From: a virus
Taxonomy: Duplodnaviria; Heunggongvirae; Uroviricota; Caudoviricetes
Strand: one strand, 5' to 3'
Virus record (IMG/VR): IMGVR_UViG_2534681766_000002
DNA length: 7,350 nt
Below, piece after piece: positions 1 to 7,350 of the stretch; position 1 is the stretch's first letter, and every line of letters begins with the position of its first letter. A program made the position numbers and the translations under genes. The notes under the pieces were generated by a model. That model worked only from the letters and a program-made list of their open reading frames with translations. It did not search any database and was not told the DNA's origin.

Positions 1-297
1 AAAGCTTTTATTGTATGTAAAAAAGCAGCTTAATATAGCCACTTAGTGGTAAAGATCTACCTTAAGACTTTGATATGTTCAAGAGGCATATAACGTAAGT
101 GTTCGTTGAGCCAAATGTGTTTACGCTATGACGAGTTGGTCGTTTTTTGACAATCCTGTAGGAGCTATAGATAGGCGTATATTAAGTGCGTGTTTTTGCA
201 TGTGTCAGATACTATTCTTTTTGTCAGTTTCGGTCAGTGCTGATGTGATTTCAGTTTCATCATGCAACTGCATTAAAACCGCCCCATGAAGCGGGCG

Positions 298-316
298 GGC
301 GAGGCGGGGAAAGCAC
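298..316. other. cos: cos site: 19-nt cohesive-end sequence GGCGAGGCGGGGAAAGCAC of P2/P4-type phages (terminase cleavage site)
   Basis: Exact string ggcgaggcggggaaagcac at 298..316, which I recall as the P2 5' cohesive end. It lies ~170 bp from the stop of portal gene Q, the expected left-end position. Flanked by a G/T-rich stretch (317..458) typical of a packaging region. Confidence 0.75.
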
Positions 317-458
317 TGCGCGCTGGCGGTGGTGCTGATTTTATTTTTTCAGCGTCTGAGCGCGTCGTGATGGCGTTTAGATTGTGCGCCGGGGCGTTGG
401 TGTGTATGCGGGCTGTTTTGTGCGGTGGTGAGCGTGTGAGGGCGTGATGACGGGGTGT

Positions 459-480
459 AAAAAAGCCGCCCGCAGGCGGC
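459..480 (-). terminator. Rho-independent terminator downstream of Q (end of the P-Q late transcript)
   Basis: On the minus strand: stem GCCGCC (revcomp of 475..480), 4-nt loop, stem GGCGGC (revcomp of 465..470), followed by a T6 run (revcomp of a459..a464). Begins 6 nt after the Q stop codon (486..488). Confidence 0.6.
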
Positions 481-485
481 GATGT

Positions 486-1520
486 TCAGCCGTTGTCAGT
501 GTCCAGTGAGTAGTTTTTAAAGCGGATGACCTCCTGACCGAGCCAGCCGTTTATCTCGCGGATCCTGTCCTGTAACGGGATAAGCTCATTGCGGACAAAG
601 ACCTTTGCCACTTTCTCAATATCACCCAGCGACCCGACGTTCTCCGGCTTGCCGCCCATCAACTGAAAGGGGATGCGGTGCGCGTCCAGCAGGTCTGCGG
701 CGCTGGCTTTTTTGATATTAAAAAAATCGTCCTTCGTTGCCACTTCACTGAGCGGGATAATTTTAATACCGTCGGCTTTTCCCTGTGGGGCGTAGAGAAA
801 CAGGTTTTTAAAGTTGTTGCGGCCTTTCGACTTCACCATGTTTTCGCGAAGCATTTCGATATCGTTGCGATCCTGCACGGCATCGGTGACGTACATGATG
901 TATCCGGCATGTGCGCCGTTTTCGTAATACTTGCGGCGGAACAGCGTGGCCGATTCATTCAGCCAGGCAGAGTTAAGGGCGCTGAGATATTCCGGCAGGC
1001 CGTACAGCTCCTGATTGATATCCGGCTCCAGCAGGTGAAACACGGAGCCGGGCGCGAAAGGTGTCGGCTCGTTGAAGGATGGCACCCACCAGTAAACATC
1101 CTCCTCCACGCCACGGCGGGTATATTTTGCCGGTGAGGTTTCCAGTCTGATGACCTTACCGGTAGTGCTGTAGCGCTTTTCCAGAAACGCATTACCGAAC
1201 ACCAGAAAATCCAGCACAAAGCGGCTGAAATCCTGCTGGGAAAGCCACGGGTGCGGGATAAACGTTGAAGCCAGAATATTACGTTTGACGTAAATCGGTG
1301 AGCTGTGATGCACGGCAGCACGCAGACTTTTTGCCAGACCGGTAAAGCTGACCGGTGGCTCATACCATCTGCCGTTACTGATGCACTCGACGTAATCCAG
1401 AATATCACGGCGGTCGAGTACCGGCACCGGCTCACCAAAGGTGAATGCCTCCATTTTCGGGGCGCTGGCAGTCATTGTTTTCACCGCTGGCTGCGGTGTT
1501 TTCCCTTTTTTCTTACTCAT
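486..1520 (-). CDS. Q: Portal (capsid portal vertex) protein, P2 gpQ-type, 344 aa
   Basis: Full-length ORF from the six-frame track (MSKKKGKTPQ...). Length and sequence match my recollection of P2 gpQ. Position directly inside cos and upstream partner of the terminase gene. Start ATG (1518..1520) overlaps the P stop codon by 1 nt. Confidence 0.93.
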   Translation of the reverse strand: MSKKKGKTPQPAVKTMTASAPKMEAFTFGEPVPVLDRRDILDYVECISNGRWYEPPVSFTGLAKSLRAAVHHSSPIYVKRNILASTFIPHPWLSQQDFSRFVLDFLVFGNAFLEKRYSTTGKVIRLETSPAKYTRRGVEEDVYWWVPSFNEPTPFAPGSVFHLLEPDINQELYGLPEYLSALNSAWLNESATLFRRKYYENGAHAGYIMYVTDAVQDRNDIEMLRENMVKSKGRNNFKNLFLYAPQGKADGIKIIPLSEVATKDDFFNIKKASAADLLDAHRIPFQLMGGKPENVGSLGDIEKVAKVFVRNELIPLQDRIREINGWLGQEVIRFKNYSLDTDNG

Positions 1521-3292
1521 CAGTAAAACTCCAGAATGGTGGATGTCAGCGGAGTGCTGATACCGGCGGTGAGTGGCTCATTTAACAGGGCGTGCATGGT
1601 CGCCCAGGCGAGGTCGGCGTGGCTGGCTTCCTCGCTGCGGCTGGCCTCATAGGTGGCGCTGCGTCCGCTGCTGGTCATGGTCTTGCGGATAGCCATGAAC
1701 GAGCTGGTGATGTCGGTGGCGCTGACGTCATATTCCAGACAGCCACGGCGGATAACGTCTTTTGCCTTGAGCACCATTGCAGTTTTCATTTCCGGCGTGT
1801 AGCGGATATCGCGCGCGGCGGGATAGAACGAGCGCACGAGCTGGAACACGCCGACACCGAGGCCGGTGGCATCAATACCGATGTATTCGACGTTATATTT
1901 TTCGGTGAGTTTGCGGATGGATTCAGCCTGGGTGGCAAAGTCCATGCCTTTCCACTGGTGACGCTCAAGTATTCTGAATTTGCCACCGGCCACCACCGGC
2001 GGTGCCAGCACCACGCATCCGGCGCTGTCGCCACGGTGTGACGGGTCGTAACCAATCCATACCGGACGTGAGCCGAACGGATTGGCGGCAAACGGAGCAT
2101 AGTCTTCCCATTCTTCCAGCGTGTCGACCATGCAGCGTTGCAGCTCCTCGAACGGGAACACCGACGCCTTGTCGTCAACAAATTCACACATGAACAGGTT
2201 TTTAAAATCGTCGGCGCTGTTTTCACGTTTGAGCTGCTCAATGTCGAACAGCGTGCAGCCGCCTTTCAGGGCGTCCTCAATGGTGACAATCTGCCGCCAC
2301 TGGCCGTCCGCACAGAGAAGCCCACCGGCAAGGGCGTTATGACTGACGTCGATTTCCACGCGTTCGGCGGCGCTGGCGCGTCCCCGGTTAAACAGTTCAC
2401 CCGACCAGAACGGGTAGGCGTCGTGCGCCAGTGTGGACGGGGTGGAGAAATAGGTCGAGCGCAGGTGACTCTGTGAGGCCATACCTGATGCCACCTTACG
2501 CAGTACCTGAAAATTCGGGATCCAGAAAATCTCGTCGACGTACAGGTCGCCGTTATGGCTCTGCGCGGGGTTGGAGTTGGTGCCGAGAAAAATCAGTTTT
2601 GCGCCGTTATTGCCCAGGACAATTGGGTCACCGGTCAGGTCAACGTCAACCAGCCGGGCAAAGGCGATGATGTATTCGCGGAACACATACGCCTGCGTTT
2701 TACTGGCCGACAGAAAAATCTGGTTATGACCGGTTTTCAGGGCGCGCAGCAGCGCCTCGCGGGAAAAATAAAACGTCGCGCCAATCTGGCGGGATTTCAG
2801 GATATCGCGGATGCGGTGCTCAAGCCCTGCGCGATACCAGTGCAACTGATATTCGAAAGACTGCTCAAAGAAAATCTGCTCCAGCTTTTCGATGGCCTCG
2901 TCACTGAAAAAATTCTTTTTCGGTTTGCGACGCCCGCCTTTGTTGCGGTTAGCGACGTTCGGATTAAGGTCTGCCTCGTTGCCGGTCTGACTGTAACGGT
3001 TGACCCGTGCCAGTCGTTCAATCTGGCGTCCGAGCAGGTCAATTTCCTTGAAGTCACCGCCGGTTTTCTGCGGTTTGATGATGAGCTGGGTCAGCCGCGC
3101 TTCCAGACTCATTTCGACACGGCTGATGGGGGCAACGCTGTCCCAGCCGTCGCGCTGTTTCCAGCTCTGCACCGTCGGGCGTTTCATCTGCAACATGGCG
3201 GCAATCCGCGGCACGGAAAATCCCTGCCAGTACAGCAGCGCCGCCTGACGACGCGGGTCGTGTAAAAGAGTGGTGTCTGTGGTGATGGTCAT
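1520..3292 (-). CDS. P: Terminase large (ATPase) subunit, P2 gpP-type, 590 aa
   Basis: The track ORF is 1520..3322 (600 aa). I place the start at the internal ATG 3290..3292 (MTITTDTTLL...) because it has a GAGG Shine-Dalgarno about 6 nt upstream on the minus strand, and it gives 590 aa, the length I recall for P2 gpP. The upstream ATG at 3322 has no comparable RBS. Confidence 0.88.
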   Translation of the reverse strand: MTITTDTTLLHDPRRQAALLYWQGFSVPRIAAMLQMKRPTVQSWKQRDGWDSVAPISRVEMSLEARLTQLIIKPQKTGGDFKEIDLLGRQIERLARVNRYSQTGNEADLNPNVANRNKGGRRKPKKNFFSDEAIEKLEQIFFEQSFEYQLHWYRAGLEHRIRDILKSRQIGATFYFSREALLRALKTGHNQIFLSASKTQAYVFREYIIAFARLVDVDLTGDPIVLGNNGAKLIFLGTNSNPAQSHNGDLYVDEIFWIPNFQVLRKVASGMASQSHLRSTYFSTPSTLAHDAYPFWSGELFNRGRASAAERVEIDVSHNALAGGLLCADGQWRQIVTIEDALKGGCTLFDIEQLKRENSADDFKNLFMCEFVDDKASVFPFEELQRCMVDTLEEWEDYAPFAANPFGSRPVWIGYDPSHRGDSAGCVVLAPPVVAGGKFRILERHQWKGMDFATQAESIRKLTEKYNVEYIGIDATGLGVGVFQLVRSFYPAARDIRYTPEMKTAMVLKAKDVIRRGCLEYDVSATDITSSFMAIRKTMTSSGRSATYEASRSEEASHADLAWATMHALLNEPLTAGISTPLTSTILEFY

Positions 3293-3465
3293 GAATACCT
3301 CGCCGTGATGAATACACGGCAAGGCTACTGAGTCGCGCCCCGCGATTCGCTAAGGTGCTGTTGTGTCAGTGATAAGCCATCCGGGACTGATGGCGGAGGA
3401 TGCGCATCGTCGGGAAACTGATGCCGACATGTGACTCCTCTAATCACTATTCAGGACTCCTGACA
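3293..3465. promoter_or_regulatory. Divergent late-promoter region between P (leftward) and O (rightward); expected site of Ogr/Delta-activated promoters
   Basis: 173-bp noncoding gap between divergently transcribed operons. P2-type late promoters are activator-dependent with a TGT-N12-ACA-like dyad near -55. The only near match I found is TGT(3430..3432)-N12-CAC(3445..3447). Exact promoter elements are not resolved from sequence alone. Confidence 0.45.
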
Positions 3466-3543
3466 ATGGCAAAAAAAGTCTCAAAATTCTTTCGTATCGG
3501 CGTTGAGGGTGACACCTGTGACGGGCGTGTCATCAGTGCGTAG
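3466..3543 (+). other. O: N-terminal 25 codons of scaffold/protease gene O, ended by an in-frame amber TAG at codon 26 (3541..3543)
   Basis: ATG at 3466 with AGGA 9 nt upstream. Reads MAKKVSKFFRIGVEGDTCDGRVISA then TAG, in the same frame as the downstream 254-aa ORF. 3466..4320 without the stop would be 284 codons, the length I recall for P2 gpO. Asp at codon 19, His at 48 and Ser at 107 in this numbering match the gpO protease catalytic triad as I recall it. Confidence 0.65.
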
Positions 3544-3555
3544 GATATTCAGGAA

Positions 3556-4320
3556 ATGGCCGAAACCTTTGACCCGCGAGTCTATGGTTGCCGCATTAAC
3601 CTGGAACATCTGCGCGGCATCCTGCCTGACGGTATTTTTAAGCGTTATGGCGATGTGGCCGAACTGAAGGCCGAAAAGATTGACGATGATTCGGCGCTGA
3701 AAGGCAAATGGGCGCTGTTTGCGAAAATCACCCCGACCGATGACCTTATCGCGATGAACAAGGCCGCGCAGAAGGTCTATACCTCAATGGAAATTCAGCC
3801 GAACTTTGCCAATACCGGCAAATGTTATCTGGTGGGTCTGGCCGTCACCGATGACCCGGCAAGCCTCGGCACGGAATACCTGGAATTCTGCCGCACGGCA
3901 AAACACAACCCCCTGAACCGCTTCAAATTAAACCCTGAAAACCTGATTTCAGTGGCAACGCCCGTTGAGCTGGAATTTGAAGACCTGCCTGAAACCGTGT
4001 TCACCGCCCTGACCGAAAAGGTGAAGTCCATTTTTGGCCGCAAACAGGCCAGCGATGACGCCCGTCTGAATGACGTGCATGAAGCGGTGACCGCTGTTGC
4101 TGAACATGTGCAGGAAAAACTGAGCGCCACTGAGCAGCGCCTCGCTGAGATGGAAACCGCTTTTTCCGCACTTAAGCAGGAGGTGACTGACAGGGCGGAT
4201 GAAACCAGCCAGGCATTCACCCGCCTGAAAAACAGTCTCGACCACACCGAAAGTCTGACCCAGCAGCGCCGCAGCAAGGCCACCGGTGGTGGCGGTGACG
4301 CCCTGATGACGAACTGCTGA
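3556..4320 (+). CDS. O: Capsid scaffolding protein/prohead protease gpO, as an N-terminally truncated ORF (254 aa) downstream of the amber codon
   Basis: Track ORF 3556..4320 (MAETFDPRVYGCRINLEHLRG...). Contains His and Ser of the presumed triad but not Asp19. Coiled-coil-like C-terminal half (EQRLAEMETAFSALKQEV...) typical of scaffold proteins. The internal ATG has only a close-spaced AGGAA (3 nt spacing), so independent initiation is doubtful. Confidence 0.8.
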   Translation: MAETFDPRVYGCRINLEHLRGILPDGIFKRYGDVAELKAEKIDDDSALKGKWALFAKITPTDDLIAMNKAAQKVYTSMEIQPNFANTGKCYLVGLAVTDDPASLGTEYLEFCRTAKHNPLNRFKLNPENLISVATPVELEFEDLPETVFTALTEKVKSIFGRKQASDDARLNDVHEAVTAVAEHVQEKLSATEQRLAEMETAFSALKQEVTDRADETSQAFTRLKNSLDHTESLTQQRRSKATGGGGDALMTNC

Positions 4321-4378
4321 CCGGCGTCAGTCAGTCCGGGAAAACCTTCACGATTAACCCTTAATTTCAGGAAAAACT

Positions 4379-5452
4379 ATGCGCCAGGAAACCCGCTTTA
4401 AATTTAATGCCTACCTGTCCCGTGTTGCCGAACTGAACGGCATCGACGCCGGTGATGTGTCGAAAAAATTCACCGTTGAACCGTCGGTCACCCAGACCCT
4501 GATGAACACCATGCAGGAGTCCTCTGACTTTCTGACCCGCATCAACATTGTGCCGGTCAGCGAAATGAAAGGGGAAAAAATTGGCATCGGTGTCACCGGC
4601 TCCATCGCCAGCACCACCGACACCGCCGGTGGCACCGAGCGTCAGCCGAAGGACTTCTCGAAGCTGGCGTCAAACAAGTACGAATGCGACCAGATTAACT
4701 TCGATTTTTATATCCGCTACAAAACGCTGGACCTGTGGGCGCGTTATCAGGATTTCCAGCTCCGTGTCCGTAACGCCATTATCAAACGCCAGTCCCTTGA
4801 TTTCATCATGGCCGGTTTTAACGGCGTGAGGCGTGCCGAAACCTCTGACCGCAGCAGCAATCCGATGCTGCAGGATGTGGCGGTCGGCTGGCTGCAGAAA
4901 TACCGCAATGAAGCCCCGGCGCGCGTGATGAGCAAGGTCACTGACGAGGAAGGGCACACCACCTCTGAGGTTATCCGCGTGGGTAAGGGCGGTGATTATG
5001 CCAGCCTTGACGCACTGGTGATGGATGCGACCAACAACCTGATTGAGCCGTGGTATCAGGAAGACCCTGACCTTGTGGTGATTGTGGGACGTCAGCTACT
5101 GGCGGACAAGTATTTTCCCATCGTCAACAAGGAGCAGGACAACAGCGAAATGCTGGCCGCTGACGTCATCATCAGCCAGAAACGCATCGGTAACCTGCCG
5201 GCGGTACGCGTCCCGTACTTCCCGGCGGATGCGATGCTCATCACAAAGCTGGAAAACCTGTCCATCTACTACATGGATGACAGCCATCGCCGCGTGATTG
5301 AGGAAAACCCGAAACTCGACCGCGTGGAGAACTACGAATCAATGAACATTGATTACGTGGTGGAAGACTACGCCGCCGGTTGTCTGGTGGAAAAAATTAA
5401 GGTCGGTGATTTCTCCACACTGGCTAAAGCGACCGCAGAGCCGGGAGCGTAA
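4379..5452 (+). CDS. N: Major capsid protein, P2 gpN-type, 357 aa
   Basis: Full-length ORF (MRQETRFKFNAYLSRVAELNG...). Length and sequence match my recollection of P2 gpN. AGGA 9 nt upstream of the ATG. Sits between scaffold and small terminase genes as in P2. Confidence 0.93.
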   Translation: MRQETRFKFNAYLSRVAELNGIDAGDVSKKFTVEPSVTQTLMNTMQESSDFLTRINIVPVSEMKGEKIGIGVTGSIASTTDTAGGTERQPKDFSKLASNKYECDQINFDFYIRYKTLDLWARYQDFQLRVRNAIIKRQSLDFIMAGFNGVRRAETSDRSSNPMLQDVAVGWLQKYRNEAPARVMSKVTDEEGHTTSEVIRVGKGGDYASLDALVMDATNNLIEPWYQEDPDLVVIVGRQLLADKYFPIVNKEQDNSEMLAADVIISQKRIGNLPAVRVPYFPADAMLITKLENLSIYYMDDSHRRVIEENPKLDRVENYESMNIDYVVEDYAAGCLVEKIKVGDFSTLAKATAEPGA

Positions 5453-5455
5453 CCG

Positions 5456-6199
5456 ATGACGAGTCCCGCACAGCGCCACATGATGCGGGTCTCGGCAGCG
5501 ATGACCGCGCAGCGGGAAGCCGCCCCGCTGCGACATGCAACTGTCTATGAGCAGATGCTGGTTAAGCTCGCCGCAGACCAGCGCACACTGAAAGCGATTT
5601 ATTCAAAAGAGCTGAAGGCCGCAAAAAAACGCGAACTGCTGCCGTTCTGGTTGCCGTGGGTGAACGGCGTGCTGGAGCAGGGCAAAGGTGCACAGGATGA
5701 CATTCTGATGACGGTCATGCTGTGGCGTCTGGATACCGGCGATATTGCCGGTGCGCTGGAGATTGCCCGTTATGCCCTGAAGTACGGTCTGACCATGCCG
5801 GGTAAACACCGCCGCACCCCGCCGTACATGTTCACCGAGGAGGTGGCGCTCGCGGCCATGCGCGCCCACGCTGCCGGTGAGTCTGTGGATACCCGCCTGC
5901 TGACGGAGACCCTTGCACTGACCGCCACGGCAGACATGCCTGATGAAGTGCGCGCAAAGCTGCACAAAATCACCGGTCTGTTTCTGCGTGACGCTGGTGA
6001 TGCCGCCGGTGCGCTGGCTCACCTGCAACGTGCGACACAGCTCGACTGTCAGGCAGGCGTCAAAAAAGAGATTGAACGACTGGAGCGGGAGCTGAAACCG
6101 AAGCCGGAGCCGCAGCCCAAAGCGGCCACCCGCGCCCCGCGTAAGACCCGGAGCGTGACACCGGCAAAACGTGGACGCCCGAAAAAGAAAGCCAGTTAA
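5456..6199 (+). CDS. M: Terminase small (endonuclease/DNA-recognition) subunit, P2 gpM-type, 247 aa
   Basis: Full-length ORF starting 4 nt after the N stop, with GGGAG RBS at 5441..5445. Basic Lys/Arg/Pro-rich C-terminal tail. Length matches recalled P2 gpM. Confidence 0.88.
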   Translation: MTSPAQRHMMRVSAAMTAQREAAPLRHATVYEQMLVKLAADQRTLKAIYSKELKAAKKRELLPFWLPWVNGVLEQGKGAQDDILMTVMLWRLDTGDIAGALEIARYALKYGLTMPGKHRRTPPYMFTEEVALAAMRAHAAGESVDTRLLTETLALTATADMPDEVRAKLHKITGLFLRDAGDAAGALAHLQRATQLDCQAGVKKEIERLERELKPKPEPQPKAATRAPRKTRSVTPAKRGRPKKKAS

Positions 6200-6298
6200 C
6201 AACCGAATGCGCCCCGCGCCAGGGCGGCACGCCGGTCAGTGAGGGTGAATCACCTGACACTGCACCGGCGTCCACCGCCCGACTTTTCAGAGGTAGTC

Positions 6299-6808
6299 AT
6301 GATGACGCTGATTATTCCGCGAAAGGAGGCTCCCGTGTCCGGTGAGGGTACGGTGGTCATCCCGCAACCGGCAGGCGACGAGCCGGTGATTAAAAACACG
6401 TTCTTTTTTCCCGATATCGACCCGAAGCGCGTCCGGGAACGTATGCGCCTTGAGCAGACTGTCGCCCCCGCCCGTCTGCGTGAGGCCATCAAGTCAGGCA
6501 TGGCGGAGACGAATGCGGAGCTGTACGAGTACCGCGAACAGAAAATTGCTGCCGGTTTTTCGCGTCTGGCTGACGTCCCGGCGGACGACATCGACGGTGA
6601 AAGCATCAAAGTTTTTTACTACGAGCGCGCCGTGTGTGCGATGGCGACCGCGTCGCTTTATGAGCGTTATCGCGGCGTGGATGCCAGTGCGAAAGGCGAC
6701 AAGAAGGCCGACAGCATTGACAGCACCATTGATGAACTGTGGCGGGATATGCGCTGGGCAGTGGCGCGCATCCAGGACAAGCCGCGCTGCATCGTGAGTC
6801 AAATCTGA
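6299..6808 (+). CDS. L: Head completion/stabilisation protein, P2 gpL-type, 169 aa
   Basis: Track ORF begins at 6239, but I place the start at ATG 6299 (MMTLIIPRKEAP...), which has AGAGG 5 nt upstream and gives 169 aa as recalled for gpL. Stop TGA 6806..6808 overlaps the X start. Confidence 0.88.
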   Translation: MMTLIIPRKEAPVSGEGTVVIPQPAGDEPVIKNTFFFPDIDPKRVRERMRLEQTVAPARLREAIKSGMAETNAELYEYREQKIAAGFSRLADVPADDIDGESIKVFYYERAVCAMATASLYERYRGVDASAKGDKKADSIDSTIDELWRDMRWAVARIQDKPRCIVSQI

Positions 6809-7011
6809 TGAAGACCTTTGCGCTACAGGGCGACACGCTCGACGCCATTTGTGTCCGGTATTACGGGCGCACTGAGGGCGTGGTTGAGACCGTGCTCGCC
6901 GCAAATCCGGGACTGGCTGAACTGGGTGCGGTGCTGCCACACGGCACCGCCGTCGAACTGCCCGACGTTCAGACCGCGCCCGTGGCTGAAACTGTCAATC
7001 TGTGGGAGTAA
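6808..7011 (+). CDS. X: Tail protein X (LysM-like domain), P2 gpX-type, 67 aa
   Basis: ATG 6808..6810 overlaps the L stop (TGATG). Product MKTFALQGDTLDAICVRYYGRTEGVV... has a LysM-like motif. The track shows it as the second half of a 90-aa ORF from 6739; the upstream part overlaps L and is rejected. Confidence 0.82.
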   Translation: MKTFALQGDTLDAICVRYYGRTEGVVETVLAANPGLAELGAVLPHGTAVELPDVQTAPVAETVNLWE

Positions 7012-7014
7012 CGC

Positions 7015-7239
7015 ATGACAGCAGAAGAAAAAAGCGTCCTGTCGCTTTTCATGATTGGGGTGCTGATTGTTGTCGGCAAGGTGCTTGCCGGTGGTGAACC
7101 CATCACCCCGCGTCTGTTTATCGGGCGCATGTTGCTCGGTGGTTTTGTCTCGATGGTTGACCGGCCAGCACAACGACACCGGCCAGCCACTTTCGTTAAC
7201 CATCCCTGTGAGTTGAAACCATGCCGATTATCGACCTGA
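7015..7239 (+). CDS. Y: Holin Y-like ORF (74 aa as read); hydrophobic N-terminal 48 aa, atypical Arg/Pro/Cys-rich C-terminus, possibly disrupted
   Basis: ATG 7015 with GGGAG at 7004..7008. Residues 8-26 and 34-48 are hydrophobic and transmembrane-like. After codon 48 (from 7159) the frame encodes DRPAQRHRPATFVNHPCELKPCRLST. I recall P2 Y as 93 aa, which does not fit the stop at 7237..7239. Confidence 0.55.
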   Translation: MTAEEKSVLSLFMIGVLIVVGKVLAGGEPITPRLFIGRMLLGGFVSMVDRPAQRHRPATFVNHPCELKPCRLST

Positions 7240-7243
7240 ACCA

Positions 7244-7350
7244 GCTATCGGGGCGATTAGCTGGCCGGTAGTGGCCGTGGTGGCCGCCATTGTCGCCGGG
7301 GCGTTACTTATCCGTAAATACTGGGAGCCTGTCAGCGCATTTTTTGGCGG
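7244..7350 (+). other. Hydrophobic reading frame with no start codon, running off the window end; likely displaced 3' part of holin gene Y (partial)
   Basis: The frame shifted +1 relative to Y encodes AIGAISWPVVAVVAAIVAGALLIRKYWEPVSAFFG with no stop to the window end and no ATG/GTG with an RBS. Joining it to Y codon 48 gives a continuous hydrophobic span followed by a charged stretch, as expected of a holin. Confidence 0.4.

Follow-up and report, generated by a model that had tools for sequence, protein, structure and literature searches.

A truncated holin gene Y, an 88-bp W/J fragment and a piece of gene T in a P2-like prophage of Escherichia coli 2730350: a probable deletion scar

The stretch of DNA analysed here (the window, 7350 bp) is the entire draft contig APXD01000037.1 of E. 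coli 2730350, assembly GCA_000356325.2. The whole window was compared with phage P2 (NC_001895) by BLAST, and translations were compared by tblastn. Four significant alignments were obtained, every one on the plus strand: window 269-316 with P2 33546-33593, window 298-7164 with P2 1-6864 (97.8% identity in an alignment of 6867 nt), window 7156-7247 with P2 11227-11318 (97.8%), and window 7244-7350 with P2 21617-21723 (92.5%). Together with the base-level alignment of the joins, these comparisons give the following features, in which the slash marks a junction:

269-316, plus strand: cosR (P2 33546-33593), joined to P2 position 1 in the manner of a prophage
298-316, plus strand: joined cos site, where P2 cosR 33575-33593 abuts P2 position 1
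298-7159: first part (P2 1-6860), with cos, intact Q, P, O, N, M, L and X, and codons 1-48 of Y
486-7011: packaging, head and X genes (minus strand: Q, P; plus strand: O, N, M, L, X)
7015-7159, plus strand: Y', the first 48 codons of the holin gene Y and 1 nt (P2 6716-6860)
7015-7239, plus strand: chimeric open reading frame of 74 aa (ENA86555.1 / WP_001391286.1), stop TGA at 7237-7239
7159/7160: junction 1, P2 6860 joined to P2 11231; 4370 bp missing (P2 6861-11230)
7160-7247, plus strand: W/J island, 88 bp (P2 11231-11318)
7160-7216: end of gene W in the island, last 19 codons, stop TGA at 7214-7216
7221-7247: start of gene J in the island, first 9 codons of gpJ
7247/7248: junction 2, P2 11318 joined to P2 21621; 10302 bp missing (P2 11319-21620)
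7248-7350, plus strand: T', an internal piece of the tape-measure gene T (P2 21621-21723)

The gene order of the window is the same as in P2 (cos, Q, P, O, N, M, L, X, Y'), with 97.8% nucleotide identity. The genes Q, P, O, N, M, L and X are full length, gap-free and stop-free, and their products share 98.8-100% amino-acid identity with those of P2. The gene calls of this block also match the expected Pfam families. The colinear cos-Q-P-O-N-M-L-X-Y block identifies the element as a P2-like (Peduovirus) prophage, and the join at cos shows a prophage or circular arrangement. The complete lysis and tail modules (K through D) of a functional phage are not present in the window; the contig ends at T codon 624, and any prophage sequence beyond this codon lies outside it. 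The Rfam scan found no RNA families in the window, and a literature search with the accession and the strain number yielded no relevant paper.

Two further observations were made on the left and central parts of the contig. The stored gene calls for the scaffold gene O (window 3400-4320) comprise an ORF of 47 aa at 3400-3543 and a product of 254 aa starting from 3556. By tblastn, gpO is full length and uninterrupted (284 aa, 3466-4317); the short call thus reflects the choice of start site and is no lesion. The sequence upstream of cos (window 1-268) is AT-rich and matches some relatives only, e.g. ESC818, where the counterpart lies directly upstream of a 2.2-kb gene for an AAA-family ATPase in the variable old/tin locus of P2. 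The alignment with other relatives begins only at about window 248-264, so the left end of the contig breaks at the edge of this variable locus. The genes at the locus differ across ten relatives.

At the right end of the contig, the gene order of P2 is interrupted. The preliminary description of this DNA proposed that the holin gene Y loses its transmembrane character after codon 48 and stops at 7237-7239, and both points agree with the comparison. Residues 1-48 of the 74-aa ORF are 100% identical to the P2 holin Y and the sequence is divergent thereafter; the remaining 26 residues (49-74) are read out of frame from the W/J DNA. The Pfam profile of Phage holin family 2 (PF04550, P2 gpY) is matched at positions 1-86 by P2 Y; whereas the 74-aa product matches only positions 1-49 of 86, and the part of the profile with the later transmembrane segments and the charged C-terminus is not covered. 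No Y sequence past P2 6860 (codon 48 and 1 nt) was found in the window. Of the transmembrane segments, the product retains one in full and a second in part, and it is most likely non-functional; with about half of the holin profile kept, the fusion is probably inert. An exact-protein look-up among about 15 billion proteins returned the 74-aa product from the source contig only, i.e. as a singleton.

The 88 bp that follow Y' are the junction of the genes W and J. The island is 97.8% identical to P2, and 91 of 91 bases are identical to the relative L026. The TGA at 7214-7216 is the true stop codon of W, and the ATG at 7221, after a spacer of 4 nt, is the true start codon of J. The C-terminal residues of gpW in the island are LTGQHNDTGQPLSLTIPVS, followed by the stop, and the Leu codon spans junction 1. 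From the ATG at 7221 the frame reads MPIIDLNQLSGRLAGR and then meets a stop; the N-terminus of gpJ in P2 is MPIIDLNQLPAPDV. The preliminary description had assigned this N-terminus to gpJ and derived the segment from a gene junction of the tail cluster, and it was right in both. Its limits for the segment (7159-7271) were too wide, since the exact W/J-derived sequence is 7160-7247.

The sequence after the island belongs to gene T. The reading frame 7244-7348 encodes gpT residues 590-624 with 100% amino-acid identity, and the nucleotide identity of T' is 92.5% to P2 and 96.3% to a prophage of enterotoxigenic E. coli (ETEC) described below. T' is without its own start codon and extends off the end of the contig. 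The frame that had been noticed at about 7244 is indeed open, hydrophobic and +1 relative to Y, but it is gpT and not the continuation of Y.

This result bears directly on the first interpretation of the locus, in which a foreign or duplicated W/J segment of about 85-100 bp had been inserted into an otherwise complete Y that resumes in the +1 frame. In favour of this model, the segment is W/J DNA, its 88 bp are of the form 3n+1, and an open frame follows that is shifted by +1 from that of Y. However, Y does not resume: the downstream translation is gpT 590-624 instead of Y 49-93 (AGVVLVQFPDLSLPAVCG), the rest of Y is missing from the window, and the check proposed in the preliminary description fails, since removal of the segment cannot restore a holin of about 93 aa when the DNA behind it is gene T. 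The segment is also no ectopic copy; it stands in its native order and orientation (Y, then W/J, then T), and the DNA missing beside it amounts to about 4.4 kb on the left and about 10.3 kb on the right. Target-site duplication was not found. An insertion is refuted by the BLAST comparison with P2, the base-level junctions and the translations, and we consider it highly improbable.

The repeats that had been taken as possible boundaries of the segment are present where they were placed, but they do not bound it. The 10-bp direct repeat ACCGGCCAGC (window 7160 and 7178) occurs twice in the intact W of P2 (P2 11231 and 11249). The inverted 8-mers are CCGGCCAG at 7161 and CTGGCCGG at 7261; the former is part of the direct repeat and native to W (P2 11232 and 11250), and the latter is native to T (P2 21634). 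The two arms do not coincide with the junctions but are set inwards from them by 1 and 14 nt, and they give the segment no terminal repeats of its own. When the 151-bp segment 7140-7290 was shuffled, at least one inverted pair of 8-mers arose in about 12% of cases. The repeats were therefore rejected as element boundaries, as native W and T sequence with an inverted repeat that is not significant. As a separate observation, CTGGCCGG has 8 plus-strand copies in P2 (18215, 19394, 19658, 20396, 21526, 21634, 22465 and 23232), all in the tail-gene block from FI to D; whereas its complement has only 2 copies, both in W. This clustering may be an effect of codon usage (Leu-Ala-Gly or Trp-Pro).

The three late-region pieces follow one another in ascending P2 order on one strand, and zero bases are left unexplained by BLAST and the base-level alignment. 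At junction 1, the Y sequence GGTTG/CCGG and the W sequence CGTTA/ACCGG gave the product GGTTG/ACCGG, with 0 nt of perfect microhomology and similarity limited to the flanking GTT and CCGG. At junction 2, the J sequence CAGCTA/CCCG and the T sequence CGCCA/TCGG gave the product CAGCTA/TCGG, with 1 nt of microhomology (A). There are no filler bases at either join. At the sequence level, the locus thus has the features of a deletion scar: the flanks are colinear with an intact relative and lie on one strand, and the joins have no untemplated bases.

The lost genes were listed from the P2 annotation in P2 coordinates. The left block, from Y codon 49 to W codon 96, comprises K, lysA, lysB, lysC, R, S, the orf30 locus, V and most of W. 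The right block, from J codon 10 to T codon 589, comprises I, H, G, the Z/fun locus, FI, FII, E/E' and most of T. The promoters pV (P2 about 10.24-10.31 kb) and pF (17.56-17.63 kb) are inside the deleted blocks. Compared with P2, the prophage in the window is therefore without the C-terminus of the holin and the endolysin, among the other products of P2 6861-11230 and 11319-21620; whereas its W/J and T pieces match their P2 counterparts.

The closest complete-genome relative is ESC818 (98.4% identity), which has the same local sequence at both junction contexts, so P2 is a fair proxy for the parent. A near-identical intact ancestor was sought through exact matches to gpM; this protein is widespread, and the ten loci read in this way are only about 98% identical in DNA. 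All ten are intact through Y to J. Their Y products have 93-97 aa and are followed by K, lysA, lysB, lysC, R, S, V, W and J, with a few gene calls absent in single loci. In all of them the homology to the window ends at the same base; it begins again after 3.5-5 kb, at the W/J junction of the locus. In the relative E. coli CP038383.1 (L025, 14913-16878), no gene is called between V and J over about 1.96 kb, where W should occupy 348 bp; the end of W was placed at 16813-16904, and there may be an insertion in W or at the V/W boundary.

Other instances of the scar were searched for in several collections. Megablast against 5,426 complete E. coli genomes found neither junction at a single place. 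The exact patterns of junctions 1 and 2 had 0 matches in the species-representative genomes and 0 in the viral contigs. The 19-mer across junction 1 matched 12 metagenome contigs, all by chance and without P2 context.

The complete genomes contain a comparable structure. In seven complete ETEC genomes from pigs, a P2-like prophage carries a deletion from Y (P2 6932) to T (P2 20951). The scar is at L002 9364-9432 in ETEC1748 (NZ_CP122719.1), where the prophage lies between fieF and replication genes, and it is also present in six sister genomes. RefSeq annotates it as a partial holin followed by a partial tape measure. The ETEC deletion occurred at an imperfect similarity of 16 bp (GGCTCCATGCTGGGTA and GGCTCAATGGCGGGGA). 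Like the prophage in the window, the ETEC prophage keeps its head genes intact and has a deletion that starts within Y and ends within T; however, it has a single deletion with other endpoints and no W/J island. The different endpoints indicate an independent event. Moreover, the ETEC scars are in complete genomes, which shows that Y-to-T deletion scars exist in finished assemblies. The Y-to-T stretch has thus been lost in two unrelated lineages, with endpoints in the same two genes. This shared loss could be due to selection against lysis, or to the similarity of the hydrophobic-coding stretches in both genes.

Defective prophages that arose by deletion are known in E. coli, and so are homology-independent illegitimate recombination and alternative end joining. 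The nearly blunt joins of the window, with 0-1 nt of microhomology, resemble the products of these processes. As in other defective prophages derived by deletion, the lethal lysis functions were lost and other modules were kept. The window differs from simple deletion scars in the 88-bp island, retained or captured, which makes it a compound scar. These comparisons suggest that the window is the left part of a P2-like prophage that has probably lost about 14.7 kb in vivo by homology-independent (illegitimate) deletion, to which we assign a probability of about 0.72. The pieces are colinear, on the same strand and in P2 order, which implies either two deletions (about 4.4 kb and 10.3 kb) or one complex deletion. 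We regard the event as ordinary prophage decay, and an artefact at the contig end as less likely. Among the causes listed in the preliminary description, a recombination scar in a degraded prophage is thus the best explanation and an assembly chimera the second-best.

In the case of an assembly artefact, the terminal 191 bp would be a chimeric tip derived from the same or a second P2-like prophage, and the true locus would be an intact Y-K series. The junctions are only 191 and 103 bp from the end of the draft contig, which has 7350 bp in all, and the pieces of 88 and 103 bp each correspond to about one Illumina read. No second instance of the structure was found in any of the collections searched, and junctions that lie near a contig end and are unsupported elsewhere are what an artefact would leave. 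All other genes of the contig are pristine. E. coli often carries more than one P2-like prophage (matching places per genome: median 2, up to 8), which tangles the assembly graph. However, a graph or overlap mis-join needs a shared repeat of k-mer length, and the joins share 0 and 1 nt. A random ligation chimera would have to draw three pieces from one 15-kb stretch in their native order and strand, for which a rough estimate is about 1e-6 in a 5-Mb genome. Polymerase jumps in vitro after shearing cannot cross 4-10 kb within one fragment, and two joins 88 bp apart would require separate chimeric read sets. Scaffold gaps would show as Ns and would be split at submission. Comparable deletions are also real in the finished ETEC genomes. 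On balance, an artefact of this kind is unlikely.

A deliberate disruption of the lysis genes in an engineered strain had also been listed, and the holin with the entire lysis cassette is indeed gone. But the junctions contain no marker, no FRT or lox scar, and no linker or restriction-site sequence; all their bases are derived from P2. Moreover, the name of the record is of the kind given to ordinary draft genomes of isolates, and keeping an 88-bp W/J scrap would make no design sense. An engineered origin was therefore rejected on the absence of foreign bases at the junctions, and it is the least probable of the explanations considered.

If the deletion took place in vivo, as we prefer, two blocks would have been removed and the 88-bp W/J scrap left between them, in place. 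Two routes might produce this structure. In the first, serial template switching would include a short tract of synthesis; in the second, repair of a break by end joining would have captured a piece of the intervening DNA during its degradation. The odds are slightly in favour of one complex event over two independent deletions (about three to two). Three features favour the compound event: the small size of the island (88 bp), the restriction of the structure to a single isolate, and the pristine state of the neighbouring genes. Decay is not seen elsewhere in the prophage, which implies that the event is very recent or not real. A more specific proposal is that the locus is a one-step compound scar in wild E. 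coli, formed either by a replication fork or repair polymerase that switched template from Y to W/J to T and copied 88 nt on the way (MMBIR/FoSTeS-type) or by the capture of an 88-bp fragment in end joining, with Y and T as possibly preferred deletion endpoints; this proposal is less likely than not. The idea of a preferred pair of endpoints draws on the two independent lineages with Y-to-T loss, and on the Gly/Ala/Val-rich hydrophobic segments with similar codons that both genes encode.

The observed features given in the preliminary description are thus confirmed, and its interpretation is partly supported. A P2-like prophage made defective by deletion scars is a well-known kind of object, and the importance of this one is slight beyond correct annotation. 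WP_001391286.1 carries the annotation 'phage holin 2 family protein', but it is a truncated fusion and no variant of a holin. With neither lysis nor tail genes, the prophage is to be classed as defective. It would be unable to lyse its host or to build tails, a typical form of prophage disarmament, and would thus be locked in as a defective element that keeps its head genes. The genes U, D and ogr are presumably downstream of T'; for any T'-U-D-ogr remainder, the only source of transcripts would be read-through from pO, the late promoter upstream. If the junctions are real, the locus would represent a clean, natural, compound and nearly homology-free deletion that disarmed a prophage and left the head genes intact. 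Together with the ETEC case, it gives a hint of recurrent Y-to-T loss in P2-like prophages.
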